DNA from: Minisyncoccota bacterium
Lineage (GTDB): Bacteria; Patescibacteriota; Minisyncoccia; Phycocordibacterales; UBA9973
Reading direction: 5' to 3'
Length of the DNA: 64,000 nucleotides
Assembly: GCA_041667145.1 (NCBI GenBank)
Contig: JBAYFP010000001.1
Span: 17,958-81,957, forward strand
Shown here: piece after piece, positions 7,120 to 61,427 of the stretch
Layout: each line of letters opens with the position of its first letter
Position numbering within the stretch: the first letter of the stretch is position 1
The notes under the pieces: model-generated
Seen by the model: only the letters and a program-made list of their open reading frames with translations
Told to the model about the DNA's origin: nothing
The model's database searches: none
Translations under genes and position numbers: made by a program

Positions 7120-7123
7120 AATT

Positions 7124-7726: not shown

Positions 7727-8203
7727 AAATTATTTACTAGAACGCAAAAAGCTCCCAGCCAGCTTGATGGTTTTTAAGCCACCCGTATCCGTTTCCAGAT
7801 ACGACACAGTGAAGTGTAAACTCTGACTAGGAGTTCTTTATTCTTCACTGTGTTTTTAACCATACCTTATAGCTTTTTAAGCAATAAGGGTTAGGTCCTG
7901 TTTATTTAATTGTATTTATATTGTAACAAAAGAGAATTTGATAGTCTAATGTTTTTTTATTTGACTTTTAAAGCTTAGGAGTTAGAATAGAAATGTAGAG
8001 TTTTTAAAAAATAAAATATATGGCTTCTATTATTCAGAGAGTTTTTGTTTTTCCGCGAGACCAATAATTTTGGATACGCGAGATAGTCTTTAAAAGATTA
8101 AACCTGAAAATTGAATGCTAAATTATTACTAAAAAGATAACTCTTTTTAGGGTGTATTTAGTGTTTAATTTTTAGCTTAGGTCTAAAAATGAACAAATAA
8201 ATT

Positions 8204-8440: not shown

Positions 8441-10111
8441 ATGGATAAAGATTTTTATAAAAACTTAAAAGTAGCAGGTTATTCTAGAAAATCATCTGAA
8501 GCAGAAGATAGACAAGTACTTTCTATAGGCTCACAAAAAGATGAGATAGAGAAAATGAAAGAATTAAATGGAATTACAGACACAATTTATTACGAAGACA
8601 GTAAATCAGCAAAAACTCCAGGAATAAGAGATCATTTTTCAAACATGATACAGGATATAAAAAATGGTAAAAGAAATGCAATTGCATGTTGGAAACCCGA
8701 CAGACTTGCAAGAAATATGGATGAGGGTGGAGAGATTATAGATTTATTACAAAGAGGAATTATCAAATCAATAATTACGCCTAGTAAAACCTATACACCT
8801 TCTGAACCAAGCTGGTCATTACTTCTTGAATTTGGTATGGCTAATCAGTTTAGTCGTGATTTATCTGTAAACGTAAAAAGAGGTCAAAATAAAAAAGCTA
8901 GAATGGGTATTCCACATGGATTAGCAAAAATAGGTTTTTTGAATGACAAAACTGAAGAAAAAGGAAATAGAAAATGGTTGATTGACGAAAAAAGATTTCG
9001 AATAATAAAAGAGGTATTTAAGGTATATCTAACTGGTAATTATTCTGGAGGTCAAATGTATGATCTAGCAATAAGAGCCGGACTTACTACACCAAAACAC
9101 AAACATAGTGGTGGTAATTCAATAACCCATTCTAGAATATATACAATATTAAAAGATACAATATATGCTGGTTTTTTTCATCAAGGAGGAGAAAGATACG
9201 AGTTAGATAAAACCTTACCTAGAATTATTACCGAAGATGAACACGAGAAAGTACTTAGAATGCTTTCTGGTAAAAATATACCAAAAACACAAACTCATCA
9301 ATCGATGTATGGCGGTTTTATAATATCACCTCAAAATAAATCCATAGGTACAGACTGTAAATTTCAAATTATATGTGAGTGTAAATACAAATTTTCTTAT
9401 ATTAATAAAACTCATTGTCCAAAATGTGGAAAAGAAATAATTTTAATAAAAAATCCAAAATATCTTGAGTATGAATATTATTACAATGTTGCCTTGAAAA
9501 AGAAAAAGTGGTCAATTAAAAATATTTCACAAAGTAAAGTTACTGATTTTTTATTAGAATTTGCGGATAAGTTTTCAATGTCCCCCGCTCTTGCAAATTG
9601 GTCCAGACGCCATATCCATGAAATTCATGATTCTGAAGTTGAATCAAAATTAGTGGTTGTAGAAAGTCAAAAGGAAAGGATTGAACAACTAGAAACAAAA
9701 AAGGAAAGATACCGTAATATGTTAGCTGATGAGATGATAGAAAGAGAAGAATACGAACATGACACAAAGAAATTTAGCGCCGAAATAGAAAAAATTAAAC
9801 AAAATTCACAAAACCAAGTAAATTGGCTACAAGAAGCTGAAAAAATAATTGACTTGGGGTTAGAAATGAAAAAAATAATCAAAAATGGAACCACAATGGC
9901 AAAAAGAGAGATACTTTCTAAACTCGGTTCGAACCTAATCTGGGACGAGGAAGAACTCAATATTATCAACAAAAAACCAATCCAAGTGCTGATCGATGGA
10001 CTTCTTTGGGCCAAACAAAAAAATCCTAAGTTCGAACCTAGTTCTATAGTTGATACATCAAGTCAGAATGATGTTTTTGAGGACATTCGTCCTATCTTGC
10101 TCCGGGGGTAG
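8441..10111 (+). CDS. large serine recombinase (resolvase/invertase catalytic domain + recombinase domain + zinc ribbon)
   Basis: N-terminal AGYSRKSSEAEDRQ..SIGSQ catalytic-serine motif, DRLAR, C-terminal CPKCGKE zinc ribbon; 556 aa; 3' end overlaps the tRNA 3' end. Confidence 0.85.
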   Translation: MDKDFYKNLKVAGYSRKSSEAEDRQVLSIGSQKDEIEKMKELNGITDTIYYEDSKSAKTPGIRDHFSNMIQDIKNGKRNAIACWKPDRLARNMDEGGEIIDLLQRGIIKSIITPSKTYTPSEPSWSLLLEFGMANQFSRDLSVNVKRGQNKKARMGIPHGLAKIGFLNDKTEEKGNRKWLIDEKRFRIIKEVFKVYLTGNYSGGQMYDLAIRAGLTTPKHKHSGGNSITHSRIYTILKDTIYAGFFHQGGERYELDKTLPRIITEDEHEKVLRMLSGKNIPKTQTHQSMYGGFIISPQNKSIGTDCKFQIICECKYKFSYINKTHCPKCGKEIILIKNPKYLEYEYYYNVALKKKKWSIKNISQSKVTDFLLEFADKFSMSPALANWSRRHIHEIHDSEVESKLVVVESQKERIEQLETKKERYRNMLADEMIEREEYEHDTKKFSAEIEKIKQNSQNQVNWLQEAEKIIDLGLEMKKIIKNGTTMAKREILSKLGSNLIWDEEELNIINKKPIQVLIDGLLWAKQKNPKFEPSSIVDTSSQNDVFEDIRPILLRG

Positions 10112-10416
10112 GGATCGAACCTACGACCAATCGCTTACACTTTATCTTCTATTACTAGAAGTGTGGACTATATCATCTCCATGTTCATAACTTATGAATT
10201 TAGGAGCAAGGCGCTTCGCGCTCTAATAAATATTAGAGAGCTACTCCAAAATGGATAGTCTCTACACCTTCCTCAATTTTGTAATTGAGGCTTGGCTCGG
10301 GATTACCCTAAAAGGGCTTCCCCGAATTCACCTTGTTGTTCAACCTACCTTTTGATAGGAAGCTGCGTAATTTTTTATCGACACAGGCGACCGCTCTACC
10401 GCTGAGCTACCCCGGA
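10100..10416 (-). tRNA. tRNA (probably Asn-GUU) interrupted by a group I intron in the anticodon loop
   Basis: 5' exon TCCGGGGTAGCTCAGCGGTAGAGCGGTCGCCTGT (10383-10416) and 3' exon TAAGCGATTGGTCGTAGGTTCGATCCCTACCCCCGGAG (10100-10137) fold into a 72-nt cloverleaf with anticodon loop CUGUUAA; exact splice junction not resolvable by eye. Confidence 0.7.
10138..10382 (-). ncRNA. group I intron (IC3-like, Azoarcus/cyanobacterial tRNA intron type)
   Basis: contains AATCCCGAGCCAAGCC and GGAAGGTGTAGAGACTATCC, matching the conserved P7/P3 region (GAGCCAAGC, GAAGGUGUAGAGACUA) of Azoarcus tRNA-Ile and cyanobacterial tRNA-Leu introns. Confidence 0.7.
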
Positions 10417-10561
10417 ATGTATTTAATTAATGAAAGAACTTTAATTATCTTAACAGAAAATGAGTAAAAAACAATAGAGTAGATTTATTATTGAATTTAA
10501 AGTATAATATGAATTATATTATTAATAATCAAAATCATAACCGTTTAAGGCGGTAAATTAT

Positions 10562-11844: not shown

Positions 11845-11849
11845 ATCAT

Positions 11850-11965
11850 AAAAAGTGAAGAACGAATATTTTTGCCGGTACGGATTTTTTGAAGCTTAAA
11901 AAATCCTGAAGTTTTCGCGCCGTCGCGCTCAAAACCCCTTAAAAACATTGTTCTTCACTTTTTAT
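11850..11965. repeat. structured repeat element copy 1: conserved 71-nt core inside a locus-specific long inverted repeat
   Basis: core 11876-11946 CGGTACGGATTTTTTGAAGCTTAAAAAATCCTGAA..AAACCCCTTAAAAAC shared with 27798-27869; flanks AAAAAGTGAAGAAC / GTTCTTCACTTTTT pair. Confidence 0.7.
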
Positions 11966-12641: not shown

Positions 12642-14402
12642 ATGAAAAGCGAGACGAAGCAATGTCAAAACTGCAAACAAGACTTTACAATAGAACCAGA
12701 AGATTTTAATTTCTATGAGAAAATAAAGGTTCCTCCACCGACTTTTTGCCCACTTTGTAGGGCAGAAAGGCGATTTACTTTTAGGAATGAACGTAAGCTT
12801 TTTAAAGTAAAAGATTTTTATACTGATAAGGATATTTTTTCTTTATATCCAGCACGTGATAGTAAAAAAAATTTTACTCAAGAAGAGTGGTTTAGTGACA
12901 ATTGGGATGCATTAGAATATGGTCGTGATTATGATTTTTCTATACCATTTTTTAAACAATTTTTTGATTTAGAAAAAGTAGTTCCAGTTTGGCCGCTTCG
13001 AGTTGAATACGTCGTAAATAGTCCATATAGTGCTAATGCCTCAGCACTTAAAAATTGTTATTTATGTTTTAATTCAAGTCAATCAAAAGATTGTATGTAT
13101 AATAATGCAATAGACTTCAGTACAGACTGTATTGATAATTCCCATATTTTTCAATCAGAACGATGCTATGAATGTTTTTGGACGGATAATTCCTACCAAT
13201 GTTATTATTCTATAATTTGTAAAGAATCCCATAATCTTTATTTTTGTAAAAATTGTCTCGGATGCTCGGATTGTTTTGGATGTGTAGATTTAAGGAAATC
13301 CTCGTATTGTATTTTTAATAAGCAATATACAAAAGAGGATTATAAAAAGGAGATAGAGAATATGAAATTAAATACCATTTCTGGAGTTTCAAGAGCAAGA
13401 GAGAAGGCTCGAGTTTTTTGGTTGACTATGCCAACAAAATATCATCAAGGTTTAAAAAATTACGATTCGACTGGTTCTTATGTAACGAATTGCAAAAACG
13501 TAAAAGAAAGTTTTCTAATGAGAGAAGGAGAAAATATTAAATATTCTCAATATTTACAAGTTCCGAAAAATAAAGATTGTTATGATGCTACTGCATGGGG
13601 ACAGAATATGGAACTTAATTATGAAACTTGTCTTTGTGGGGAAAATTCTTTTAATATAAAATTTTGTTCAGATTGCTGGCCTAATTTTAAAGATTCTGAA
13701 TATTGTATAAGTATGTTTAGTTGCTCGGATTGTTTTGGATGTGTTGGTTTAAAGAAAAAACAATATTGTATTTTGAATAAACAATATACAAAAGAAGAAT
13801 ATAAAATTTTAGTAGAAAAAATTAAAAAACATATGGATGATATGCCTTTTGTTGACAGTAAAGAAAGGATATATAAATATGGAGAATTTTTTCCTATAGA
13901 ATTTTCTCCATTTGGTTATAACAATACAACAGCAATTCAGTATTTTAAAATGACAAAGGAAGAAGCAGAAAAAAAGGGTTATCCATGGAAAGAAATTGAA
14001 AGGGGTGAATATAATATCACTAAAAAAGTATCAGAACTTTCTGATTCTATTAACGATGTTGATGATTCTATCTTAAAAGAAGTAATAGAATGTGAAAACT
14101 GTAAGAGACCTTATCGTATTTTAAAGAATGAATTTATTTTTTATAAAAAAGAAAATTTACCTCTACCTGATTTGTGTGATGAATGTCGTTTTAGAAGAAG
14201 AATTAATGACAGGCTGGGGATTAAGTTGTATGAAAGGTCCTGTATGTGTAAAAGCGATTCTGATGAAACAGGTGTCTATAAAAATACTGTAGAACATATA
14301 CATGGTAATGAACCTTGTGGTGAAATATTTAAAACTGGATATAGCCCTGATTCTAAAGAGATAGTATACTGTGAGAAATGTTATCAGCAGGAGGTTTATT
14401 AA
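12642..14402 (+). CDS. cysteine-rich protein, paralog 1 (about 60 Cys; N- and C-terminal zinc-ribbon-like CxxC pairs; internal repeats)
   Basis: CQNCKQDF..CPLCR N-terminal ribbon; internal duplicated blocks ..CKNCLGCSDCFGCV.. and ..CSDCFGCVGLKKKQYCILNKQYTKEEY..; C-terminal CENCK..CDECR..CEKCY. Confidence 0.6.
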   Translation: MKSETKQCQNCKQDFTIEPEDFNFYEKIKVPPPTFCPLCRAERRFTFRNERKLFKVKDFYTDKDIFSLYPARDSKKNFTQEEWFSDNWDALEYGRDYDFSIPFFKQFFDLEKVVPVWPLRVEYVVNSPYSANASALKNCYLCFNSSQSKDCMYNNAIDFSTDCIDNSHIFQSERCYECFWTDNSYQCYYSIICKESHNLYFCKNCLGCSDCFGCVDLRKSSYCIFNKQYTKEDYKKEIENMKLNTISGVSRAREKARVFWLTMPTKYHQGLKNYDSTGSYVTNCKNVKESFLMREGENIKYSQYLQVPKNKDCYDATAWGQNMELNYETCLCGENSFNIKFCSDCWPNFKDSEYCISMFSCSDCFGCVGLKKKQYCILNKQYTKEEYKILVEKIKKHMDDMPFVDSKERIYKYGEFFPIEFSPFGYNNTTAIQYFKMTKEEAEKKGYPWKEIERGEYNITKKVSELSDSINDVDDSILKEVIECENCKRPYRILKNEFIFYKKENLPLPDLCDECRFRRRINDRLGIKLYERSCMCKSDSDETGVYKNTVEHIHGNEPCGEIFKTGYSPDSKEIVYCEKCYQQEVY

Positions 14403-14405
14403 ATA

Positions 14406-14460
14406 CCCAGACGTTGGACATCTGGGGATTATCCATAGTTCCAGATGTCCAACATCTGGG
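14406..14460 (+). other. pair of GC-rich hairpins (inverted copies of a 21-nt unit) between the Cys-rich paralogs
   Basis: CCCAGACGTTGGACATCTGGG (14406-14426) and CCAGATGTCCAACATCTGG (14441-14459), each self-complementary. Confidence 0.5.
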
Positions 14461-14471
14461 TGAAGAAAATC

Positions 14472-16238
14472 ATGGAGTATAAAAATGAAAATAAAATATG
14501 TCAAAACTGTAAACAAGATTTTACAATAGAGCCAGAAGATTTCAATTTTTATGAAAAAATAAAGGTACCTTCACCGACGTTTTGTCCACTTTGTAGGGCA
14601 CAGAGAAGATTTGCTTTTAGAAATGAAAAAAAATTTTTTCGTACAAAAAGCGCATTTTCTAATAAGGACATTTTTTCTTTATTACCCAAAGAAAGTCAAA
14701 GAAAAATTGTGACCGAAGAAGAGTGGCATGGAGATACATGGGACGCGATGGAATATGCTAGTGAAATAGATTTTTCAAAACCATTTTTGAAACAAATTTT
14801 AGATTTAGAAAAACTAATACCCATTTATAATCTAAATTGTCAATTTATGGTAAATAGTCAGTATTCAGGGAATGCGACAGCCCTTAGAAATTGTTATCTT
14901 TGTTTTAATTCTAACCATTCTGAAGATTCTATGTATGGGAATGCAATCGATAGCTCAAAGGATTGTGTAGATAATTCACATGTAAACCATTCTGAAAGAT
15001 GTTATGAATGTTTTTGGTTAGAAAATTGTTATCAATGTTATTTTTCGATAATATGTAAAGATTCTTTTAATCTATATTTTTGTAAGAATTGCGTAGGATC
15101 TTCAAATTGTTTTGGGTGTATGAATTTAAGTAAATCATCTTTCTGTATTTTTAATAAACAATATACAAAAGAAGAATATGAAATTGAAATAGAAAAAATG
15201 AAATTGAACACAATTTCAGGAATTTCAAAAGCTAGAGAAAAAGCACGTATATTCTGGTTAACTAAACCAGTAAAAAATCATCAGGGTTTGAAGAATTTGA
15301 ATTCAACAGGTTCTTATGTGACAAATTGTAAAAACGTAAATGATAGTTATTTAATTAGGGAGAGTGAAAATATGCGTTATTGTCAGTATATGCAGGTTTC
15401 AGGTAACAAGGATTGTTATGATACCTCTATTTGGGGAGAACACATGGAGTTGGATTATGAGACTTGTCTTTCTGGTGAAAATTCTTACAATTTAAAATTC
15501 TGCTTAAATTGTTGGCCAGCTTGTCGGAATAATGAATATTGTATTAATCTTTTTAGTACGACGGATTGTTTTGGTTGTGTTGGTTTGAAAAAGAAACAGT
15601 ATTGTATCTTAAATAAACAATATACAAAAGAAGAATACGAAATTTTGGTAGAAAAAATTAAGAACCATATGTATGAAATGCCATATGTTGATTCACAAGG
15701 TCTTGTTTATAAATATGGGGAGTTTTTCCCAATAGAATTTTCAGCATATGGATACAACAATTCGATTGCTTTTCAACATTTCCCGATTACGAAAGATGAG
15801 GCAGAAAAAAGGGGATATTTATGGATTGAAGTTCCTCATGGAGAATATACTATTACGAAAAAAGTTTCGGATCTCCCAGATTCGATTGATGATGTTGATG
15901 ATAATTTTTTAAGGGAAGTTGTAGAATGTGAAAATTGTAAAAATGCTTTTCGTGTCTTAGAGGATGAATTAAATTTTTTACAAAAAGAGAAACTTCCTTT
16001 ACCGACGATGTGTCATGATTGTAGACATAAAAGAAGGATAAGTGATAGATTGGAAATAAAATTATATGAAAGATCTTGTATGTGCAAGGGGGACTTTGAT
16101 GAAACTGGTGTTTATAAAAATACTGTAAAACATATACATAGTGATGAACCTTGCGGTGAAATATTTAAAACTGGATATAATCCTGATTCAAAAGAAATAG
16201 TATATTGTGAAAAATGTTATCAGCAGGAGGTATATTAA
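14472..16238 (+). CDS. cysteine-rich protein, paralog 2 (tandem duplicate of 12642-14402)
   Basis: roughly two-thirds identical to paralog 1 along full length; start moved to the Met aligned with paralog 1 (the ORF-track start 14445 overlaps the hairpin). Confidence 0.6.
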   Translation: MEYKNENKICQNCKQDFTIEPEDFNFYEKIKVPSPTFCPLCRAQRRFAFRNEKKFFRTKSAFSNKDIFSLLPKESQRKIVTEEEWHGDTWDAMEYASEIDFSKPFLKQILDLEKLIPIYNLNCQFMVNSQYSGNATALRNCYLCFNSNHSEDSMYGNAIDSSKDCVDNSHVNHSERCYECFWLENCYQCYFSIICKDSFNLYFCKNCVGSSNCFGCMNLSKSSFCIFNKQYTKEEYEIEIEKMKLNTISGISKAREKARIFWLTKPVKNHQGLKNLNSTGSYVTNCKNVNDSYLIRESENMRYCQYMQVSGNKDCYDTSIWGEHMELDYETCLSGENSYNLKFCLNCWPACRNNEYCINLFSTTDCFGCVGLKKKQYCILNKQYTKEEYEILVEKIKNHMYEMPYVDSQGLVYKYGEFFPIEFSAYGYNNSIAFQHFPITKDEAEKRGYLWIEVPHGEYTITKKVSDLPDSIDDVDDNFLREVVECENCKNAFRVLEDELNFLQKEKLPLPTMCHDCRHKRRISDRLEIKLYERSCMCKGDFDETGVYKNTVKHIHSDEPCGEIFKTGYNPDSKEIVYCEKCYQQEVY

Positions 16239-20013: not shown

Positions 20014-20412
20014 ATGAAAATAAATTTACAAGGTAAAAATTTAGAAATTACTCCGGCTATTAATGATTATGTGGTAAAAAGAATGACCAATCTAGGTCGG
20101 TTGCTTTCGGAGATTGAAGAAAAAGGTGGAGATATTTTAGTTCGTTTTAATGTTTCAAAAACAACAAATCATCACAGAGCAGGAGATGTTTTTGAGGCTG
20201 ATTGTTCTATAAGTATAAAAGGAGAGAACTTTTATTCTAAAGTTGTGATGGAAGATCTTTATCAAGCGATAGATATGGTGAAAGAAAATCTTTTTAATGA
20301 TATTGAGAAAAATAAAGATCGTAGGCAGACACTTTTTAGGAGAGGGGCGGCGAGTGTCAAAAAGATGATGAAAGGTCTTTCAAAGCGAAATCCTTTTACG
20401 TCGAAATATTAA
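20014..20412 (+). CDS. hpf: ribosome hibernation promoting factor / RaiA (S30AE family)
   Basis: typical S30AE fold sequence (LEITPAINDYVVKRM, VRFNVSK). Confidence 0.75.
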   Translation: MKINLQGKNLEITPAINDYVVKRMTNLGRLLSEIEEKGGDILVRFNVSKTTNHHRAGDVFEADCSISIKGENFYSKVVMEDLYQAIDMVKENLFNDIEKNKDRRQTLFRRGAASVKKMMKGLSKRNPFTSKY

Positions 20413-21317
20413 TTTTTATAATCTATCTCTTTTCCCCCTTCTGGAATAATCTTTTTTATTATAAACTGGTTATTTTCAAGTATCGCATCTGTAATTATTA
20501 TTCTTTTGCCATTCTTAAAAAAGAAAGTTCGGGGCCAAGTAGCATAAGCTCTGAATTTATTATAATTATTTACCCCATCATCATTTAAATTTATAAACCC
20601 GTCTTCTTTCTTAATTTTCTTGCAATAGGTGGCTTGAGATTCGTTTTGTTTTTCTCCCCCTGCGAAGGGGGAGTGTCCAGAGGACGAGGGGGTCTTTAAT
20701 ATTTTTACTAAAAGTTCTCCCCCAATTTTTATCATACGTTTACGTAATTCTCCTGCTTTTTCATCTGGCTTAATTTCTATTTTTTCTACAGCTATGATAG
20801 GTCCTGTATCCATCTTGTATTCCATCTTTTGGATAGTGACGCCCGTTTCTGTATCCCCATTTAATATAGCTGATTCTACAGGAGAGGCTCCACGATATTT
20901 GGGAAGTAGAGAATAATGAATGTTTATAGAAACTAGTTTAGGTAGATTTATTAAATCTTCTGGAATTATTTTTCCATAGGCGACTACCAGAAAGAAATCT
21001 GGTAAGGATTTGCTTTTAGCGGGTGTCTCGCAGGCTGACGAGCCGAGAGGCAGCGCTGTGCCAGTAGGCACAGACAGCGACCCGATAAAAGTAGAATCCT
21101 TACCAGATAGAATCTCGGGTTGCAGATAGGGGACATTGTTATTTATTGCCCAAACTTTTACGGGTGGGGGAGTTATGAGCATTTTACGTCCTTGTGGTTT
21201 ATCGGGAGCAGTGATTATAAGCGATGGCATATAGCCGTTTTCTTTTAGAATTTCTAATGTTTCGGAAGCGACATCTGGTGTTCCCCAGAATATGAAATTT
21301 AAATTTTTTGTATTCAC
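20409..21317 (-). CDS. fmt: methionyl-tRNA formyltransferase
   Basis: HYSLLPKYRGASP motif, N-terminal formyltransferase domain; carries two GC-rich palindromic inserts. Confidence 0.85.
   Translation of the reverse strand: MNTKNLNFIFWGTPDVASETLEILKENGYMPSLIITAPDKPQGRKMLITPPPVKVWAINNNVPYLQPEILSGKDSTFIGSLSVPTGTALPLGSSACETPAKSKSLPDFFLVVAYGKIIPEDLINLPKLVSINIHYSLLPKYRGASPVESAILNGDTETGVTIQKMEYKMDTGPIIAVEKIEIKPDEKAGELRKRMIKIGGELLVKILKTPSSSGHSPFAGGEKQNESQATYCKKIKKEDGFINLNDDGVNNYNKFRAYATWPRTFFFKNGKRIIITDAILENNQFIIKKIIPEGGKEIDYKN
20654..20673. repeat. GC-rich hairpin CTCCCCCTGCGAAGGGGGAG inside fmt
   Basis: 8-bp perfect stem in AT-rich coding context; encodes extra low-complexity residues. Confidence 0.45.
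21054..21079. repeat. GC-rich palindrome CGCTGTGCCAGTAGGCACAGACAGCG inside fmt
   Basis: 7-bp stem CTGTGCC/GGCACAG inside an insertion encoding GSLSVPTGTALPLGSS. Confidence 0.4.
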
Positions 21318-27746: not shown

Positions 27747-27773
27747 AATAGCATAAAATTAGATTATTAAAAT

Positions 27774-27887
27774 AAAAGAGCAAAAGATAAATTTTTGTCG
27801 GTACGGATTTTTTGAAGCTTAAAAAATCCTGAAATTCTCGGCTCGACAGCCTCGAAACCCCTTAAAAACTTATCTTTTGCTCTTTTA
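27774..27887. repeat. structured repeat element copy 2 (core 27798-27869 inside a 23-bp perfect locus-specific inverted repeat)
   Basis: flanks AAAAGAGCAAAAGATAAATTTTT / AAAAACTTATCTTTTGCTCTTTT; second internal hairpin shows compensatory changes vs copy 1. Confidence 0.7.
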
Positions 27888-27894
27888 TTTTGTA

Positions 27895-37043: not shown

Positions 37044-38000
37044 ATGAAAAATGAAATTAAAATTTTTTGTGTAAAAGATTGGAAAGACTATGAGCTTTTA
37101 GATACTGGTGAAGGGGAAAAATTGGAAAGATTTGGTCCGTATACTTTTGTGCGTCCATATGAGGATGCTGTTTGGCTGAAAACTTTAGAAAACAAAGAAT
37201 GGGCGAAAGCTGATGGTAAATTTTGGAGTTCAAAAGTTGGTGCAAAGCCTGGATGGAAGATGAATAATAAAATTGAGAAGAAATGGGAGATGGAATATAA
37301 AGGGGTTAAATTTTTTGCTTCTCCTACATCTTTTAGACATTTAAGTTTCTTTCCTGAACAGGCGTATCATTGGGATTCTATATATGAAAAGATTACTTCA
37401 CAGAATGAGACTTTTTCTCGGGTCCTCGAGGCAGAGCCCCAGACCAGCTCAAAAAAGTCTCATTCTGTTTCGTTAGATTTAAAAAAAATAAAATTTCTGA
37501 ATCTTTTTGGTTACACTGGGGTCGCTAGTTTGTTTGCTTTGAAGGCTGGGGCAGAAGTGACGCATGTCGATGCTTCAAAATCTTCTATTGAACAGGCAAA
37601 AGAAAATCAGAAAATAAATATTGAATTGGCTGAAGCGCCTATGCGGGCTATTTGTGATGATGTACTTAAGTTTTTAGAAAGGGAAGTAAAGAGAGGAAAT
37701 AAATATGATGCTGTTGTTATGGATCCACCTAAATTTGGTCGCGGGCCTAAAGGAGAAATTTGGGAAATTGAAAAAGATTTACCGAAACTTCTTTCGTTGG
37801 TTCGTAAAATTTTGAGTGATAAACCACTTTTTGTTATTTTGAATTCTTATGCCATAGATTCATCCTCGCTTTCTTTAGGTTATGCCCTAGAGGATGCCAT
37901 GAAGGTTTTAGATGGCGAAGTTTCTGTTGGTGAGCTTTGCCTCTTAGAAAAATCTAATAATAGAACTATTTCTCTTTCAAATACTGCTATTTGGTGCTAA
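37044..38000 (+). CDS. class I SAM-dependent methyltransferase (RlmI/YccW-like)
   Basis: FGYTGVASL (motif I), VVMDPPKF (DPPxF motif IV). Confidence 0.5.
   Translation: MKNEIKIFCVKDWKDYELLDTGEGEKLERFGPYTFVRPYEDAVWLKTLENKEWAKADGKFWSSKVGAKPGWKMNNKIEKKWEMEYKGVKFFASPTSFRHLSFFPEQAYHWDSIYEKITSQNETFSRVLEAEPQTSSKKSHSVSLDLKKIKFLNLFGYTGVASLFALKAGAEVTHVDASKSSIEQAKENQKINIELAEAPMRAICDDVLKFLEREVKRGNKYDAVVMDPPKFGRGPKGEIWEIEKDLPKLLSLVRKILSDKPLFVILNSYAIDSSSLSLGYALEDAMKVLDGEVSVGELCLLEKSNNRTISLSNTAIWC
37428..37459. repeat. GC-rich element (family E: GGTCCTCGAG..CCCAGACCA) inside the MTase CDS
   Basis: CGGGTCCTCGAGGCAGAGCCCCAGACCAGCTC; cf. 40438-40467 and 60754-60798. Confidence 0.45.
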
Positions 38001-38011
38001 AATAAAAGACT

Positions 38012-38587
38012 ATGGAAACAAAACCAAAGGTTTTAAAGTGGGCGCTTATTATAGGTATTGTAGTGGTGTTAAATTTATTTTTTAATTATACTATTTCTCT
38101 TTTTTATAAAGAGCCAGATTATAATACTTTTTTCCCACAGCAACAAGTCGTGGAGCCGATAACTAATAAAGATGCATGTCTCAAAGTCGGTGGGCAGTGG
38201 ATTGAAAGCCCTGTATATAAAGATGGGAAGACTGTTCCAGTTCCAGCAGGTTCTCCACAAGTGATGAGTTATTGTAATCCTGATTTTACCAAACAGCAGG
38301 AATTTAGTGATGCGCAAAAGGTTTACCAAAGAAACATTTTTATAATACTTGTCGTACTTGGTGTCCTATCTCTCGTTTTAGGTGTGTTTCTTGCCAATGA
38401 AATTATTACCTTAGGTCTTTCATGGGGTGGAGTTCTTTCACTTGTCATTGCTTCAATGCGATATTGGTCAACTGCAGACAATCTTATAAAAGTTCTGATA
38501 TTAGGATTTGCATTAGCTGCACTTGTTTGGTTGGCTGTCAGAAAGTTTGGGAAAAATATTAGTTCTGATGAAAAATTACAACCATAA
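38012..38587 (+). CDS. hypothetical membrane protein
   Basis: N- and C-terminal TM helices. Confidence 0.4.
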   Translation: METKPKVLKWALIIGIVVVLNLFFNYTISLFYKEPDYNTFFPQQQVVEPITNKDACLKVGGQWIESPVYKDGKTVPVPAGSPQVMSYCNPDFTKQQEFSDAQKVYQRNIFIILVVLGVLSLVLGVFLANEIITLGLSWGGVLSLVIASMRYWSTADNLIKVLILGFALAALVWLAVRKFGKNISSDEKLQP

Positions 38588-40946
38588 AACAATTGAATTA
38601 AAAATCCAGAGGGAATGGGAAAAGAAAAAAATTTATTCTGTCTCTGAAAAATCTAAAAAACTAAAATTTTATGGTTTGGTTGAATTTCCATATCCTTCAG
38701 GAGAGGGTTTGCATATTGGGCACCCTCGTTCGTACACAGCAATGGATATTATTGCACGTAAACGAAGAATGGAAGGGATGAATGTTTTGTATTCAATCGG
38801 CTGGGATGCTTTTGGATTGCCTACAGAAAATTATGCTATTAAGACTGGAATTCAGCCGGCGATTGTTACAAAGAAAAATACAGATACATTTCGCAAACAA
38901 TTAAAAAGTTTGGGATTTTCATTTGATTGGTCTAGGGAAATAAATACAACTGATCCGAAATATTATAAATGGACACAGTGGATTTTCTTACAGTTTTTCA
39001 AAAAGGGCTTAGCATATAAAGCAAAATCTTACATAAATTGGTGTCCGAAAGATAAAATAGGATTAGCTAATGAAGAGGCTGTGGGTGGTATTTGTGATCG
39101 TTGTGGAAGTGCTACAGAAAAGCGTGAAAAAGAACAGTGGATGCTTGCTATCACAAAGTATGCAGATAGACTCGATAAAGATTTAGATTTAGTTGATTAT
39201 CCTGAGCGAGTAAAAATACAACAAAAAAATTGGATAGGGAAAAGTGAAGGAAGTGAGATTTTATTTAAAATTCCTCTTAGCTCTTTTTTTGTAAAAGTAT
39301 TTACTACTAGGCCTGATACACTTTTTGGTGTTACGTATGTTGTGCTTGCGCCAGAGCATCAATTAGTTGCAAAACTTTTTGATCAAATCGAAAATAAAAA
39401 GGAAGTTCAAAAATTTATTGAGGATACTAAAAAGAAAACTGAGTTAGAAAGGACAGCAGAGAACAAAAATAAAACGGGGATTGAATTAAAAGGTATTAAA
39501 GCTTTAAATCCTGCAAATAATGAAGAGGTGCCTGTCTGGATAGCTGATTATGTATTAGCAGATTATGGTACAGGGGCGGTAATGGCTGTACCACAACATG
39601 ACGCACGAGATAGAGAATTTGCAGAAAAATATAATTTACCGATAATAGATAAGCCTTTAGTTGATGCAAAAGAAATTACTAAAAAAGTCGGTGGGAAAAT
39701 TGTTACAAAATTTAAATTACGAGATTGGGTGTTTTCAAGGCAGAGGTATTGGGGTGAGCCGATACCGATAATAAATTGCGAAAAATGTGGCTCTGTGCCA
39801 GTGCCAGAAAAAGATTTACCTGTGAAATTACCAGAAGTGAAAAGTTATAAGCCAACGAATAATGGAGAGTCTCCACTTGCTAGTATTTTAAAATGGGTGA
39901 ATGTAAAATGTCCTAAATGTAAAGGTAAAGCAAAGAGGGAAACAGACACCATGCCTAATTGGGCAGGAAGCTCTTGGTATTATTTAAGATATACTGATCC
40001 TAAAAATAATAAGGTTTTTGCAGACCCTAAAAAAATGAAATATTGGCTTGGGAACAAATCGGGGCAGGGCGGTGTAGATTGGTATAACGGAGGAATGGAA
40101 CACACTACTCTTCATTTATTGTATTCTCGTTTTTGGCATAAATTTTTGTATGATTTAAAACTTGTGCCGACTATTGAGCCGTATCAAAAAAGGACTTCAC
40201 ATGGGATGATTTTGGGTGAAGGGGGAGTAAAAATGTCTAAATCTTTAGGCAATGTGGTAAATCCAGATGATATTGTGAAAACTTACGGTGCGGATACTTT
40301 ACGAGTATATGAAATGTTTATTGGGCCTTTTGAAGAATCTGTAGCTTGGAGTACAGAAAGTATTATCGGTTCGAGAAGGTTTATAGAAAAAGTTTGGAGG
40401 TTGAGAAATAAAGCGGAAGAGAGTCCAAAGAATTTTTCAGGTCCTCGAGATAAATCCCAGACCATTCAAAATCCTTCGGCCTCTCTCCCGCTTCAAAAAC
40501 TTTTACATAAAACTATTAAAAAAGTGGGAGAAGATATAGAAAATATGCGTTTTAATACTGCTATTTCTGCAATGATGATACTTGCAACAGAGATGGAGAA
40601 AGTAGAAACTGTTGATGTAGAGGATTTTAAAAAGTTTTTACAAATTTTAGCTCCATTTGCTCCACATATTGTTGAAGAAATTTGGCAAAATTTAAGAGAA
40701 AAAAAATCTATTAGTTTTTCAGAATGGCCTAAATATGATGAAAATCTAATAAAAGATAAAGAAATAAAAATAGCCGTGCAAGTAAATGGTAAATTTAGAA
40801 CTGAGATTCTAATAGAGGTAGATGAGAAAGAAGAAATTGTAAAAAATAAAGCTTTGAAAAATGAAATAGTTTTGAAATATATGATGGGTGGATCTCCTAA
40901 AAAGGTGATTTATGTAAAAAATAGACTTATCAACATATTAACCTAG
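38568..40946 (+). CDS. leuS: leucyl-tRNA synthetase
   Basis: HIGH (HIGHPRSY) and KMSKS (VKMSKSLGNVV) motifs, CP1/zinc region; start moved to MKNYNHK. Confidence 0.85.
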   Translation: MKNYNHKTIELKIQREWEKKKIYSVSEKSKKLKFYGLVEFPYPSGEGLHIGHPRSYTAMDIIARKRRMEGMNVLYSIGWDAFGLPTENYAIKTGIQPAIVTKKNTDTFRKQLKSLGFSFDWSREINTTDPKYYKWTQWIFLQFFKKGLAYKAKSYINWCPKDKIGLANEEAVGGICDRCGSATEKREKEQWMLAITKYADRLDKDLDLVDYPERVKIQQKNWIGKSEGSEILFKIPLSSFFVKVFTTRPDTLFGVTYVVLAPEHQLVAKLFDQIENKKEVQKFIEDTKKKTELERTAENKNKTGIELKGIKALNPANNEEVPVWIADYVLADYGTGAVMAVPQHDARDREFAEKYNLPIIDKPLVDAKEITKKVGGKIVTKFKLRDWVFSRQRYWGEPIPIINCEKCGSVPVPEKDLPVKLPEVKSYKPTNNGESPLASILKWVNVKCPKCKGKAKRETDTMPNWAGSSWYYLRYTDPKNNKVFADPKKMKYWLGNKSGQGGVDWYNGGMEHTTLHLLYSRFWHKFLYDLKLVPTIEPYQKRTSHGMILGEGGVKMSKSLGNVVNPDDIVKTYGADTLRVYEMFIGPFEESVAWSTESIIGSRRFIEKVWRLRNKAEESPKNFSGPRDKSQTIQNPSASLPLQKLLHKTIKKVGEDIENMRFNTAISAMMILATEMEKVETVDVEDFKKFLQILAPFAPHIVEEIWQNLREKKSISFSEWPKYDENLIKDKEIKIAVQVNGKFRTEILIEVDEKEEIVKNKALKNEIVLKYMMGGSPKKVIYVKNRLINILT
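40438..40467. repeat. family E GC-rich element inside leuS
   Basis: CAGGTCCTCGAGATAAATCCCAGACCATTC. Confidence 0.45.
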
Positions 40947-44927: not shown

Positions 44928-46811
44928 ATGAAATTAGGAAATATTAGAAACTTCAGCATAATAGCTCATATTGATCATGGGAAGAGTACCTTGGCAGATC
45001 GAATGCTTGAGATTACTCATACTATTCCAGAACGTAAAATGCGCGACCAGGTGTTAGATACTATGGAGCTTGAACGTGAACGTGGAATTACTATCAAAAT
45101 GCAACCTGTGAGGATGGAATTTTCCCCGAATTCCCCGAAACCAGGTTTAGGGGGAATTCCCCTAAACCTGGTTTCGGGGAAAAATGAGACTTATGTTTTA
45201 AACCTTATAGACACTCCTGGACATATAGATTTCTCTTATGAGGTATCTCGCGCCCTAAAGGCTGTAGAGGGGTCTATTTTGTTGGTTGATGCAACACAGG
45301 GAGTACAGGCGCAAACACTTACTACGCTTAATATGGCGCGTGAGGGAGGCATCAAGATCATCCCTGTTCTGTCTAAAATAGATTCACCTTTGGCCCGTGT
45401 GGAAGAGGTAAAAAAGGAGGTTATAGAGCTTTTAAATTGTGATTCTAATGATGTTCTTATGGTCTCAGGACGTACAGGTGAAGGAGTGGAAAATTTGTTA
45501 CAAGAGATCATAAAACGTGTTCCACCACCAAAAGAAAATTACCAACAAGGTGAAAATATTTTACGTGCTCTTGTTTTTGATTTTAAATATTCAAGCCATA
45601 AAGGTGTGATAGTTTTTATTCGATTACTTGATGGGCAAGTAAAGAAAGGAGAGAGTTTAATTTTTTCAGTTTCAGGAGAGAAATTTAGTTCTCTTGAAGT
45701 TGGTACTTTTTCTCCTGAAGAAACTCCTAGGGATTTTTTGTCAGCAGGAGACACAGGATACATTGTCACAGGTATTAAAAGGCCAGGTATAGCTTCTGTT
45801 GGAGATACCATTACTAAAGAAAAAAATCCATTACCTCCGCTTCCTGGATACATGCAACCGATGCCTGTCGTTTGGGCTTCTGTTTTTCCTGAAGACGCGG
45901 ATGACTTTATGGAGTTAAAGGCCTCATTAGGTAAATTAAAACTTTCGGATTCTTCTTTTTCTTATGAGGAAGAATCTTCAGGTTCATTGGGGCGGGGTTT
46001 TCGTTGTGGATTTTTAGGAATGTTACATTTGGAAATAATTACAGAAAGATTAAGACGAGAATTTAATTTAAAATTAGTAATCACAACACCTTCTATTACT
46101 TACGAAGTTGTTATGAAAAATCCTTCTATAGTTTCAGGGCATTTTGGTAAAAAAGTAAAAATATATTCTCCATATTTTTTCCCAGATGATGGAAATATAG
46201 AAACAGTTCAAGAGCCTTGGGTTGATGTAAAAATAATTTCTCCAGCAAAATTTTTAGGTAATATTATGCAACTTCTTTTCGACCATGAAGCGGAAGTAAG
46301 AGAAACAGATAATTTTGGTAATAATCGTTCTTCTTTATCTGTCAGAATGCCACTTCGTGAACTTATGCGTAATTTTTTTGATGAATTAAAAAGTGTAACA
46401 TCTGGCTATGGATCTATTTCTTATAAAATAGGGGAAATGAGAGAAGCGAATGTCACTCGACTCGATATTCTTGTAGCGGATGAAGTCGTTCCAGCTTTTT
46501 CGAGAGTTATAGCAAAAAAGAGAGCGGAAGAAGAAGCAGAAAAAGCTGTTGAAAGGCTAGAAGGTATTTTACCAAGACAGATGTTTACTTTAAAAATACA
46601 GGGTAGAGCTTTAGGGCGTATTATTTCTTCACGTACAATGTCTGGCATGAAAAAAGATGTCACCCAGCACATGTATGGTGGAGATATCACTCGTAAAATG
46701 AAGCTTCGTGAGAAACAGAAAAAAGGGAAGAAGAAAATGAAAGAGCGAGGCAGGGTAAATATCCCACAGGATGTATTCTTAAAAATGATGCGTTCGGGGA
46801 ATGATAATTAG
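44928..46811 (+). CDS. lepA: elongation factor 4 (LepA)
   Basis: GTPase motifs AHIDHGKST, DTPGH; LepA C-terminal domain; carries in-frame palindromic insert. Confidence 0.9.
   Translation: MKLGNIRNFSIIAHIDHGKSTLADRMLEITHTIPERKMRDQVLDTMELERERGITIKMQPVRMEFSPNSPKPGLGGIPLNLVSGKNETYVLNLIDTPGHIDFSYEVSRALKAVEGSILLVDATQGVQAQTLTTLNMAREGGIKIIPVLSKIDSPLARVEEVKKEVIELLNCDSNDVLMVSGRTGEGVENLLQEIIKRVPPPKENYQQGENILRALVFDFKYSSHKGVIVFIRLLDGQVKKGESLIFSVSGEKFSSLEVGTFSPEETPRDFLSAGDTGYIVTGIKRPGIASVGDTITKEKNPLPPLPGYMQPMPVVWASVFPEDADDFMELKASLGKLKLSDSSFSYEEESSGSLGRGFRCGFLGMLHLEIITERLRREFNLKLVITTPSITYEVVMKNPSIVSGHFGKKVKIYSPYFFPDDGNIETVQEPWVDVKIISPAKFLGNIMQLLFDHEAEVRETDNFGNNRSSLSVRMPLRELMRNFFDELKSVTSGYGSISYKIGEMREANVTRLDILVADEVVPAFSRVIAKKRAEEEAEKAVERLEGILPRQMFTLKIQGRALGRIISSRTMSGMKKDVTQHMYGGDITRKMKLREKQKKGKKKMKERGRVNIPQDVFLKMMRSGNDN
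45124..45179. repeat. 46-bp near-perfect palindrome inserted in frame in lepA (family C)
   Basis: CCCCGAAACCAGGTTTAGGGG-gaatt-CCCCTAAACCTGGTTTCGGGG (45133-45179), with a partial extra half-copy 45124-45132; adds about 14 aa before DTPGH. Confidence 0.75.
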
Positions 46812-46819
46812 ATTAAGAC

Positions 46820-46912
46820 AGGCCACTCTTGAAAGAATTTTCGAAACTGCGCCCTCGGAGTCATAAGGACAGGGAACCCACACGTTTCTTAAAATTCTTT
46901 CAAGAGTGGCCT
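46820..46912 (+). terminator. long hairpin (22-bp perfect stem, about 49-nt GC-rich loop) just after the lepA stop
   Basis: AGGCCACTCTTGAAAGAATTTT / AAAATTCTTTCAAGAGTGGCCT, followed by TTTTCAGTTATTT. Confidence 0.5.
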
Positions 46913-50403: not shown

Positions 50404-51717
50404 ATGGATAAAAAGATTACAAAAATTGTGGGAGAAGAGATTAAGGATTCGAGAGGGAACCCGACTATTAAAGTGACTGTTTGGGTAGGTGATGAATCAG
50501 GCAGTTTTGCTGTGCCGTCTGGAGCCTCTACGGGGGCTCATGAAGCTCATGAATTAAGAGACCCCGAACCAGAGCAAGCTCGGTACGGGGCAGGTCCAGA
50601 TGGCAAGGGTGGTATGAAGAAAGCTATTTGGAACGTAGAGAATATAATTGCTCCGGCATTGATTGGTCAAAATGTTTTAAATCAAGAAGTAATAGATAGA
50701 ATGATGATTAAATTAGATGGCACTCCAAATAAAGACAATCTCGGAGGGAATGCTCTTATTGGTGTCTCTATCGCTTGTGCTAAAGTAGCAGCAAAAGTTT
50801 TTAGTTTAGAAACTTTTGAGTATTTGCGAACTTTAGCAAAAATAAAACCTTCAAGAAAAATTCCTTATTTGTATATGAATTTAATAAATGGGGGGAAGCA
50901 TGCGAAAAATGAGTTGGCCTTCCAAGAATATCACATAGTACCTAGCACTGAAGATGTAAGCGAAGCAATGGAAATGGGTATCAAAATACAAAATAGTTTG
51001 AAAGAAATTATTAGTAAAGACCTTGGGGGAGAATCAATAGTATTTGGTGATGAGGGTGGTTTTGCTCCTAAAATAAGCGACGTTAAAAAACCTTTAGAAT
51101 ATCTAAGTAAAGCAATAAAACAAAATAATCTTGTAGACAAAGTACGTTTAGCATTAGACGTCGCTAGTTCTTCATTTTTTGAAAATCCTGCCCGCAATGC
51201 TTCAGGCATAGCTGATGCAGGCGGGGGGAAATATAAAATTGATAGTAAAGAAATAACGAAAGAAGAGTTGATAAGTGTTTATAATTCTTTAATTAGGGAA
51301 TTTGATTTACTTTCAATAGAAGATCCGTTTGATGAGGAAGATTTTTCCAGTTTTAGAAAATTAAGAGAAAATAATAAAAAATTATTTAGACCTAGGTCTA
51401 GTCTTTTAGTGGTAGGGGATGACCTGACTGTCACAAATAAAATTTTATTGGAAAAAGCGATAGGAGAAAAGAGTATTAATGCAATGATAATTAAACCAAA
51501 TCAGATAGGTACTCTTACGGAAACTCTTGAAACGATGAAAAAAGCACGAGAGAATGATGTTGAGTTGATTATTAGCCACCGAAGCGGGGAAACGGAGGAT
51601 GATTTTATTGCTGACCTTGCCTATGCTTTTGGTTGTTTTGGATTAAAAGCTGGTTCTCCCCAAAAACCTGAAAGAATGGTGAAGTATAAAAGATTAATTA
51701 AAATTTCAGAAATGTAA
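50404..51717 (+). CDS. eno: enolase
   Basis: DSRGNPTIKV, VGDDLTVTN, SHRSGETED motifs; carries GTACT-family insertion. Confidence 0.9.
   Translation: MDKKITKIVGEEIKDSRGNPTIKVTVWVGDESGSFAVPSGASTGAHEAHELRDPEPEQARYGAGPDGKGGMKKAIWNVENIIAPALIGQNVLNQEVIDRMMIKLDGTPNKDNLGGNALIGVSIACAKVAAKVFSLETFEYLRTLAKIKPSRKIPYLYMNLINGGKHAKNELAFQEYHIVPSTEDVSEAMEMGIKIQNSLKEIISKDLGGESIVFGDEGGFAPKISDVKKPLEYLSKAIKQNNLVDKVRLALDVASSSFFENPARNASGIADAGGGKYKIDSKEITKEELISVYNSLIREFDLLSIEDPFDEEDFSSFRKLRENNKKLFRPRSSLLVVGDDLTVTNKILLEKAIGEKSINAMIIKPNQIGTLTETLETMKKARENDVELIISHRSGETEDDFIADLAYAFGCFGLKAGSPQKPERMVKYKRLIKISEM
50562..50594. repeat. GTACT-family element in frame inside eno
   Basis: CCCCGAACCAGAGCAAGCTCGGTACGGGGCAGG, same loop (AGAGCAA(A)GCTC) and right arm (GTACGGGGCAGG) as 44881-44916. 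Confidence 0.55.
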
Positions 51718-55161: not shown

Positions 55162-55833
55162 TTATTTCAGATATAGTGGGCAGTCGCTAAAATCCCAGTT
55201 TTTTATCGATACTGCCGGTGACGAATTATTTTTACAAAGTGGACACTCATCAGGTACCCATTTTGATATCTTGCGATTGACAAGTGCAAGAATTTCTTTG
55301 TTGTTGCCAGTCCTTATCCCGGATTGATTCATAAAGGTAGCAACATATGGTAGGACATTTCCACCACTTTCCATGATGATACTGTCAATCAAAGGAATAT
55401 CCGAAAATATTGTTTCGGAGAAGAAGTTTGTAATTAGTAAAATTTCTTCTCCGGTTCGGATATCCATTGATGGGCGAGATGGTAAATTGCATTCTTCAAT
55501 AACATACCCGCCATGAAGACATGTGTTGCCATATTGTGGTATTTGCCCGAGGCGGAGTGCCATATTGTAGGCGATGATGTTTGATCTTAAATCAAGGCTT
55601 AATATTTTTTTAATTCTTTTGATGTTGCCAATCTTAGACCAAGTTATTGTGATAAGATCATTACAGATTTCATTAAGGAAATCTGGATCCTTAGTGATTA
55701 TCTCTGGTCTTGTAAAACCATCTGAATGTCTTCCCGAATGAAGAATAGCATGAGGTTTTTTTGGATCTCCACTATAATCATAGAACCAAATAATACCTCT
55801 TTTCGCTAATTCTTCTTTATGATCTAAATGCAT
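55162..55833 (-). CDS. hypothetical protein
   Basis: 223 aa, no confident motif. Confidence 0.35.
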   Translation of the reverse strand: MHLDHKEELAKRGIIWFYDYSGDPKKPHAILHSGRHSDGFTRPEIITKDPDFLNEICNDLITITWSKIGNIKRIKKILSLDLRSNIIAYNMALRLGQIPQYGNTCLHGGYVIEECNLPSRPSMDIRTGEEILLITNFFSETIFSDIPLIDSIIMESGGNVLPYVATFMNQSGIRTGNNKEILALVNRKISKWVPDECPLCKNNSSPAVSIKNWDFSDCPLYLK

Positions 55834-60281: not shown

Positions 60282-61427
60282 CTACTTTAGACGTAAGTTT
60301 CCCTTCGCTTTAATTTTTGAGGTTTTGGCTAGTTTATCTTTGTTTTTTAAAAACTGTAAATATCCGACTATCCCTATCATTATAGAGTTATCTCCTGATA
60401 ATTCCTTTTTTGGGAAAAATAATTTTGTGTTTTTATCCATAACCTTTTTCATTTGCCTCTGTAGGTGTCTATTACAAGCAACTCCACCGGCAACAATTAA
60501 AGTTTTAGCTTTATATTTTTCTTTTGCCTTGATTGTTTTATAAATTAGAGTTTCTACGACAGCGTTTTCAAATTCTAAAGCTATAGCTTGTTTTGTTTTT
60601 TCATCTTTTAAAATATTTGGATTTTCTTTTTCTAAGTCACGTATTAAATAGAGTACCGCTGTTTTTAATCCTGAAAATGAGAAATCAAAATTTTTACTAT
60701 AAAGCATAGGGCGGGGAAGAGAATTTTTTTTAGCTTTGCCTGTATGCTTTTGTGAATGGTCTGGCCGGGGTAGGGGACCCGGGGAACCGAGGACCTGAGC
60801 AAAAGCATCGGGCAAGGCTAATCTTGCCTCCTCAGCTAATTTTGAAATTTTTGGGCCACCAGGGTATTCTAACCCGAGCATTCGTGCGACTTTATCGTAT
60901 GCTTCACCAGCTGCGTCATCTAAGGTTTCACCGATGATTTTATATTTTTCAAAGTTTTTTGTAATAATTAGTTCTGTATGTCCTCCAGAGACAAGAAGTG
61001 ACAAAATAGGGGATTCTATTTTTGGAATATTAAACTTTCCTTTGTTTTTTCCAAAGACAGATAATATGTGTCCTTCCATATGATTTACAGGTATGAGTGG
61101 GACTTTCCATTTTTCGGCTAGTTCTTTTGCAAAGGTTATCCCAGTCCAGAGTGAAGGTTCTAGCCCTGGTCCATATGTCACAGCTATTGCATCTATTTTT
61201 TCTTTGGTGATTTTTTTTAGTACTTGCTCTAAAAGTATAGGTAGATTTTTTATATGTTCTCTTTTTGCAAGCATAGGAAAAACTCCACCATATTGTGCAT
61301 GGATTTTAACTTGTGAATTTGACACATTGGCTAGTATTTTAAAAGAGGTATTTTCTTTATTTCCCTTTACCTCCATTACGGTTAGAGCCGTGTCGTCGCA
61401 GCTTGTTTCAATACTTAAAATTCTCAT
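60282..61427 (-). CDS. tsaD: tRNA N6-adenosine threonylcarbamoyltransferase TsaD
   Basis: MRILSIETSCDDTA, HMEGH, VAGGVACN motifs; carries GC-rich insertion. Confidence 0.85.
   Translation of the reverse strand: MRILSIETSCDDTALTVMEVKGNKENTSFKILANVSNSQVKIHAQYGGVFPMLAKREHIKNLPILLEQVLKKITKEKIDAIAVTYGPGLEPSLWTGITFAKELAEKWKVPLIPVNHMEGHILSVFGKNKGKFNIPKIESPILSLLVSGGHTELIITKNFEKYKIIGETLDDAAGEAYDKVARMLGLEYPGGPKISKLAEEARLALPDAFAQVLGSPGPLPRPDHSQKHTGKAKKNSLPRPMLYSKNFDFSFSGLKTAVLYLIRDLEKENPNILKDEKTKQAIALEFENAVVETLIYKTIKAKEKYKAKTLIVAGGVACNRHLQRQMKKVMDKNTKLFFPKKELSGDNSIMIGIVGYLQFLKNKDKLAKTSKIKAKGNLRLK
60754..60798. repeat. family E GC-rich element inside tsaD
   Basis: coding strand CAGGTCCTCGG-TTCCCCGGGTCCCCTACCCCGG-CCAGACCATTC; encodes inserted GSPGPLPRPDHSQ. 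Confidence 0.45.

Follow-up and report, generated by a model that had tools for sequence, protein, structure and literature searches.

Palindromic, GC-rich DNA elements within housekeeping genes of a Nomurabacteria/Paceibacteria-type genome

We analysed a stretch of 64,000 nucleotides ("the window"), placed by its TsaD homologs among Candidatus Nomurabacteria/Paceibacteria (Patescibacteria); the same tsaD is also found on 203-kb metagenome contigs. Three genes in the window each contain one copy of a repeat that we refer to as "family E". The first host gene, at 37044..38000 on the + strand, encodes a class I SAM-dependent RNA methyltransferase (PF10672; similar to PDB 2igt). Within it lies a 69-nt hairpin (37400..37468, +) whose arms, 37400-37416 and 37452-37468, are complementary at 17/17 positions and whose core, GGTCCTCGAGGCAGAGCCCCAGACC, occupies 37421-37445. 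The second host gene, leuS (38523..40946, +), encodes leucyl-tRNA synthetase and contains an 83-nt hairpin (40411..40493, +) with its core at 40440-40463; this copy is located in a variable LeuS linker that runs from the VWR..K motif to LLHKTIKKV. The third, tsaD (60282..61427, -), encodes a tRNA t6A synthase subunit. Its 92-nt hairpin (60730..60821, -) has the complete core, including an apical GC stem-loop (60758-60795), and gives the product LALPDAFAQVLGSPGPLPRPDHSQKHTGKAK. The third copy has the same orientation relative to its gene as the other two, i.e., the motif GGTCCTCG is on the coding strand in all three cases, in differing codon phases. These are the only copies in ~74 kb of the source genome (the window plus 10 kb more). 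Their sequences are not nearly identical and thus give no indication of recent activity.

A first-pass annotation had drawn attention to two end motifs common to the three genes, and pattern searches bear this out. All three strings quoted there are present in the window. The composite pattern GGTCCTCG-N(5-35)-CCAGACC has three matches, with 0.00 expected, and none of 100 dinucleotide-preserving shuffles of the 64-kb window contains any match. With ≤1 mismatch allowed, GGTCCTCGRG matches five times in the window as against 1.05 expected, a number reached by 0/100 shuffles. Each of the three window occurrences of CCAGACCA adjoins one of the three GGTCCTCG occurrences, and a covariance model applied without filters recovers these three copies in the window and no others. 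The annotated positions for leuS (40438) and tsaD (60754) are right; the methyltransferase string is at 37419-37450, not at 37428-37459, a shift of ~9 nt. Translation reproduces the peptides given for leuS (SGPRDKSQT) and tsaD (QVLGSPGPLPRPDHSQ), and their frames do differ. By contrast, the suggestion that the word CCAGAC ties family E to other repeats did not hold up: there are 16 occurrences in the window versus 10.9 expected, and 9/100 shuffles reach that number. CCAGAC is thus not enriched, and the proposed link is therefore without statistical support.

Only the core, of 25-38 nt, had been described; the full unit in the window is larger, a hairpin of 69-92 nt, arms included. The window copies have folding z-scores of -4.6 to -7.4, and a long-hairpin fold was found in 11/11 copies analysed, as well as in a further copy, from a metagenome contig (L011). 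Read on the GGTCCTCG strand, the 5' half consists of a variable arm, a T-run, a few unpaired bases, GGTC, a CTC bulge, and GG. The apex is an optional GC-rich stem-loop, shortened in the methyltransferase and leuS copies. The 3' half consists of CC, an unpaired A, GACC, an A-run, and the complementary arm. An alignment of 11 copies from eight loci has 18 invariant columns, and 9/17 consensus base pairs have changes on both sides, i.e., the pairs covary. The arms behave differently: their complementarity score is 12-19 within one copy versus 3-10 between non-orthologous copies, and the core is invariant across genomes of 30-57% GC. An invariant core with most arms completely different is not predicted by simple neutral decay of whole-element copies. 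A search of Rfam 15 on both strands, at E≤1, returned no family at any of the three window copies. Two identities for the core were considered and rejected: a K-turn, because the core contains none, and a ribozyme, intron, or other known RNA motif, because of the negative Rfam result. The flanks of 12 copies have no consistent direct repeat; TTC is present beside two, and the one empty site is much diverged.

Comparison with orthologs and homologs shows where extra DNA is present. In a genome with the same gene order (GCA_018823255.1; locus L289), the methyltransferase gene lacks 25 codons exactly at the hairpin, and the alignment with PDB 2igt has a gap of ~25 aa at the insert, between two aligned domains. 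TsaD homologs that lack the insert are shorter by about 26-28 aa, with 30-36 residues from PGGP to FSFSG versus 56 in the window protein. In LeuS, the distance from VWR..K to LLHKTIKKV is 18-22 aa in homologs without an insert and 34-62 aa in homologs with one; the window protein has 41. The leuS gene of L289 has an orthologous family E copy with perfect 19-nt arms. In an orthologous tsaD copy (L121), a C-G pair of the apical stem is replaced by U-A, a compensatory change. Orthologous copies differ in length by 6 nt in tsaD and 15 nt in leuS, both multiples of three, and independent family E copies are present in another tsaD (L287) and another leuS (L290). When the tsaD loci were searched for LeuS and methyltransferase orthologs, only paralogous aminoacyl-tRNA synthetases were found there.

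Family E is not confined to the source genome. A pattern scan of metagenomes yielded at least five true copies among the 120 loci listed, each with the hairpin architecture; the remaining matches listed are chance occurrences in GC-rich DNA. One locus (L039) has two copies, one in ligA (NAD-dependent DNA ligase) and one intergenic (L039b); another (L048) has a single intergenic copy; and a third (L056) has a copy within tgt (tRNA-guanine transglycosylase). On a contig of 57% GC (L011), a tsaD copy at the usual site is inverted relative to the gene. One subfamily, recognizable by the peptide ASPDAFAQVLGS..PDHSQKHTG, keeps its arms in TsaD (the window protein, L121, and P0002-5), in LeuS (L290/P0183), and in a PF01565 FAD-binding protein. 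The same arms in three host genes mean that the whole hairpin, not the core alone, can move. The FAD-binding gene, known from its peptide only, is probably a family E host; a concatenated peptide query gave only two such proteins (P0241 and P0242), which does not amount to a census. Family E is therefore a dispersed repeat, with hosts that include genes for a methyltransferase, LeuS, TsaD, LigA, Tgt, and a PF01565 protein, plus two intergenic sites. These unrelated genes and intergenic DNA of other CPR genomes, the absence of the methyltransferase copy from the syntenic ortholog and from the solved homolog 2igt, and a 5' motif read in codon phases 1, 2, and 3 across copies all uphold the first-pass interpretation of an inserted nucleic-acid element. 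Searches elsewhere were negative. In the IMG/VR viral contigs, a first pattern gave nothing but chance matches, and a complete scan with a refined pattern gave 21 matches, all without a hairpin and all outside AT-rich DNA. The covariance model R1, run over ~1.1 Mb of collected sequence, found no additional diverged copies, and full-text searches of the literature turned up no account of elements like these in CPR/Patescibacteria.

No genic copy contains a stop codon or disrupts the frame of its host gene. Likewise, every complete tsaD locus collected from genomes with tblastn is intact across inserts of many families. This conservation of the reading frame suggests that the inserts are translated. 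Indeed, copies that are in frame, stop-free, different in length by multiples of three, and read in three phases point to read-through rather than to bypassing by the ribosome or to excision. The use of three phases for the 5' motif also rules out selection on the peptide. The insertion sites appear compatible with the host folds: the methyltransferase insert falls between the two domains that align to 2igt, and the TsaD insert falls in a loop modelled with low confidence. In the AlphaFold model of the window TsaD (mean pLDDT 87.5), insert residues 214-233 are coil with pLDDT <50, and the rest is at about 90; the insert is thus predicted to be a loop that is probably disordered. Orientation is biased, with eight copies sense and one antisense. 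In the common orientation, the conserved part of the consensus has no stop codon in any of the three frames; in the opposite orientation there is a TGA in one frame at each end of the consensus, which may account for part of the bias.

The two strands of the genic hairpins are not equivalent. The strand antisense to the mRNA folds better, by 5-19 kcal/mol, in 9/10 genic copies, and in 7/8 independent genic copies, the flipped L011 copy included (the copies scored are those of the window, L011, L039, L056, L121, L287, L289, and L290). The antisense strand has 29 G.U pairs versus 9. Among 244 ordinary coding windows from the same DNA, the antisense strand folds better in only 31%. This asymmetry hints at a constraint beyond mere tolerance of the inserts; it is equally explained, with no antisense function, by selection against stable hairpins in translated mRNA. 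Mutation bias was rejected as the cause, on the grounds that the sense strand has G>C and A>T and that the coding baseline runs in the opposite direction.

Family E is one among many families of hairpin inserts that occupy the same protein loops, a circumstance that the first-pass annotation had missed. We surveyed TsaD and LeuS homologs (P0001-P0240) and the loci L121-L146. The TsaD loop between KLAE and LPRPM and the LeuS linker before LLHKTIKKV are hot spots: dozens of CPR lineages have inserts of ~28 aa there that differ from one another and derive from hairpins. Within these loops, one and the same DNA may be read in different frames or orientations, e.g., SQADGPRGSAPRARGDSDP versus SLSPRARGALPLG, and some proteins have double inserts.

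In our view, family E probably consists of mobile palindromic elements that permissive protein loops tolerate and that are translated there, much like the palindromic elements of Rickettsia discussed below. Under this model, family E would comprise imperfect palindromes of ~70-95 bp that spread within and between CPR genomes of the Nomurabacteria/Paceibacteria type. Each would consist of a GC-rich asymmetric core (GGTCCTCGG, an optional apical GC stem-loop, and CCAGACC), a 5' T-run and a 3' A-run, and self-complementary arms of 15-30 nt. Elements would land in intergenic DNA and in genes alike, with genic copies surviving where their length keeps the frame and where the site is a permissive surface loop or linker of a housekeeping protein. 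The host would then translate through the element, producing an extra loop of ~23-30 aa that is probably disordered and whose sequence is set by the frame. Spread presumably occurs by DNA-level copying of the whole hairpin, probably via a single-stranded hairpin intermediate. The complementarity of the arms could be kept either by template switching ("quasi-palindrome correction") or by selection, and the element would be of no benefit to its host. A scan of 30 proteins, including 28 window ORFs (about half of the ORFs in the window), revealed no transposase; the sole recombinase among them is a serine recombinase at 8441-10111.

There are several other ways to account for these observations. 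One possibility, unlikely in our estimation, is that there is no element with fixed ends, and that GC-rich cores are copied into the apex of existing hairpins, such as older inserts or terminators, through template switching during replication or through gene conversion among dispersed palindromes; only the core would then travel, and the arms would be part of the site. In line with such copying, the core is invariant while the arms of most copies are unlike, and no consistent target-site duplication was seen at the flanks of 12 copies. The tsaD hairpins of L121 and L287 appear nested in remnants of older arms formed by a purine run and a pyrimidine run (KEKQ..FSFS), although this is an unquantified reading. 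The same KEKQ..FSFS arms are common to loci with quite different cores, and short alleles (L127, L136, and L142) retain such arms alone. Many core families are found in the same tsaD and leuS loops, and the tsaD inserts of L123 and L124 are in opposite orientations, with 106/117 positions identical to the reverse complement. However, the empty methyltransferase site of L289 has no pre-existing palindrome, one subfamily brings its own arms into three host genes, and the TsaD double inserts (P0045, P0047, and P0106) lie side by side rather than nested. A more radical version, which we regard as quite unlikely, is an undescribed type of mobile DNA in CPR whose small, structured, GC-rich cores home into, swap between, and flip within existing hairpin tips, those of hairpins in essential genes among them, using a folded intermediate of the antisense strand and an unknown enzyme. 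If core-swapping does take place, certain loops of TsaD, LeuS, and other proteins would be rapidly evolving "cassette" sites across the radiation.

The hairpin might instead be a selected functional structure, acting in cis in the mRNA or as antisense-strand RNA or single-stranded DNA. The constancy of the core in genomes of 30-57% GC, the covarying stems with their compensatory change between orthologs, and an antisense strand that is more stable against the coding-sequence baseline would all be expected of such a structure. The strand asymmetry is equally explained by selection against stable mRNA hairpins, however, and the hairpins are found both between genes and in unrelated genes, where either orientation occurs. 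They are missing from orthologs with no sign of compensation, have lost the apical part in two window copies, and match nothing in Rfam on either strand even at E≤1; we therefore judge a function of this kind very unlikely. Alternatively, the inserts might be left untranslated, through intron-like removal from the mRNA or through ribosome bypass of the kind seen in T4 gene 60 and in the "byp" elements of Magnusiomyces mitochondria. Unusual intervening sequences are a known trait of CPR genomes, and the window contains a group I intron in what looks like a tRNA gene. The byp elements, cited in the discussion of PMC6649704, are also palindromic and within protein-coding genes. Neither route predicts a constraint on frame, yet all genic copies keep the frame and lack stops, the complete tsaD loci are intact, ortholog lengths differ by multiples of three, and no ribozyme or intron model matches, making an untranslated insert highly improbable. 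Hardest of all to credit is that family E is a peptide module under protein-level selection, or the product of chance. The three codon phases yield unrelated peptides, and some copies are intergenic; as for chance, the composite pattern has an expectation of 0.00.

Palindromic "selfish DNA" inserted in frame in essential genes is best known from Rickettsia. The RPEs, reportedly described by Ogata et al. (2000/2002), are protein-coding palindromic repeats of that genus. They are also summarised in section 4.2 of PMC10969869. Family E resembles RPEs in being a dispersed palindromic repeat of a small AT-rich genome, located in frame in unrelated housekeeping genes, adding a peptide at fold-compatible positions, with intergenic copies and no known transposase. 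Thus, the characteristics of the RPE kind, i.e., a repeat family, a stable hairpin, a fold-compatible site, and, judging from the reading frames, read-through, are all found. The differences are that the host of family E belongs to CPR, that the elements measure 69-95 bp rather than about 100-150 bp, that the conserved core is GC-rich with arms unlike between most copies, and that in CPR the same loops are occupied repeatedly by different families and by inverted copies. Because of its host and its length, we liken family E to RPEs by kind and do not file it as a member of RPE-1 to RPE-10.

Other systems are less similar. Bacterial MITEs found in genes include ERIC/RU and QMITE1 (PMC10969869, PMC2759123). 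MITEs are characterized by terminal inverted repeats conserved between copies, target-site duplications, and a related IS element. Like family E, they are small, non-autonomous, hairpin-forming repeats able to make in-frame fusions. Unlike MITEs, family E has its least conserved part in the terminal arms, and the 30 scanned proteins include no transposase; no terminal repeats conserved between copies were found, with arms shared within subfamilies only. Byps and yeast mitochondrial GC clusters are GC-rich, mobile, and present in AT-rich genomes. The byps of Magnusiomyces capitatus mitochondria are palindromic and interrupt protein-coding genes, according to the citation of them in PMC6649704. 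Because the ribosome skips byps, they need not preserve the frame, whereas genic copies of family E invariably do so and contain no stops. In mitochondrial genes of Nematomorpha, long inverted repeats form coding palindromes in functional coding sequence (PMC6649704), and the discussion of that paper proposes that template switching keeps them perfect. There, as in family E, arm complementarity appears to be actively maintained. However, both arms of the nematomorph palindromes encode conserved host protein, and neither a shared core nor an insertion relative to orthologs is described; the family E hairpin is wholly extra and has a dispersed core. Lastly, REP/REPIN sequences, mobilised by RAYT, are extragenic, with a conserved tag and arms that are recognised (PMC3733652). 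Family E shares with them GC-rich imperfect hairpins in many copies that are probably handled as single-stranded DNA. It differs in being mostly genic, with variable arms and no invariant tag: GTAG/CGTC is outside the invariant columns, so family E is not the extragenic, GTAG/CGTC-tagged palindrome of the REP/REPIN-RAYT system.

An unrelated and apparently widespread CPR counterpart to the Rickettsia repeats suggests that elements of this kind may arise recurrently in very small AT-rich genomes. Such elements would explain why CPR housekeeping proteins vary in length and have low-complexity loops that are lineage-specific; these loops can mislead alignments, phylogenies, and structure predictions. 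The hot-spot loops of TsaD and LeuS amount to a natural experiment on the tolerance of proteins for insertions of random peptides. For the mechanism of mobilisation, starting points are offered by the constancy of the core, the variability of the arms, and the asymmetry between strands.

Hairpins other than family E are also found in coding sequence of the window. The gene fmt (methionyl-tRNA formyltransferase; 20409-21317) has a 103-nt insert at 21001-21103 (-), GC-rich and branched, with a folding energy of -58 kcal/mol. Its core matches the tsaD insert of L124 at 63/78 positions, and by visual comparison the same core family is present in L123, inverted, and in L130. A hairpin in lepA (45131-45181) has perfect 23-nt arms, and the window LepA has nine extra residues there relative to the L287 ortholog. 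Strong hairpins are also located within the coding sequences of enolase (50513-50604) and of the ORF at 55162-55833 (55385-55475). In L289, in-frame GC hairpin micro-insertions of ~21 nt, e.g., CCCCGCCTTTGGCGGGG, are present in ychF (3425) and leuS (6794-6850), and a NUDIX domain is inserted within LeuS (6971-7530); all of these are absent from the window.

Between genes, a hairpin downstream of lepA (46820-46912; -45 to -50 kcal/mol) has a GC-rich centre of 49 nt enclosed by perfect arms of 22 nt. Two intergenic elements, at 11848-11965 and 27769-27891, have in common a ~75-nt core with two hairpins (..GYCGGTACGGATTTTTTGAAGCTTAAAAAATCCTGAA..), flanked by outer arms of 25-28 nt that differ between the copies, a design like that of family E; neither has an Rfam match. 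A further hairpin, at 14405-14461, has 21-nt arms that are 95% complementary (about -42 kcal/mol) and contains CCAGAC; it is located between ORFs of ~590 aa (12642-14402 and 14445-16238) with no Pfam match. The group I intron is at 10145-10456 (-; Rfam, 66.7 bits), between GC islands at 10088-10129 and 10377-10420 that resemble tRNA exons; ARAGORN called no tRNA at 10088-10460. The serine recombinase at 8441-10111 (+), a large one, adjoins this intron, and an AbiEi/AbiEii toxin-antitoxin pair is found farther left (2207-3567, +). The intron/recombinase region looks like an island integrated at a tRNA gene. A full-length LOOT RNA (Rfam RF03000, 77 bits) is located at 7766-7897 (-).
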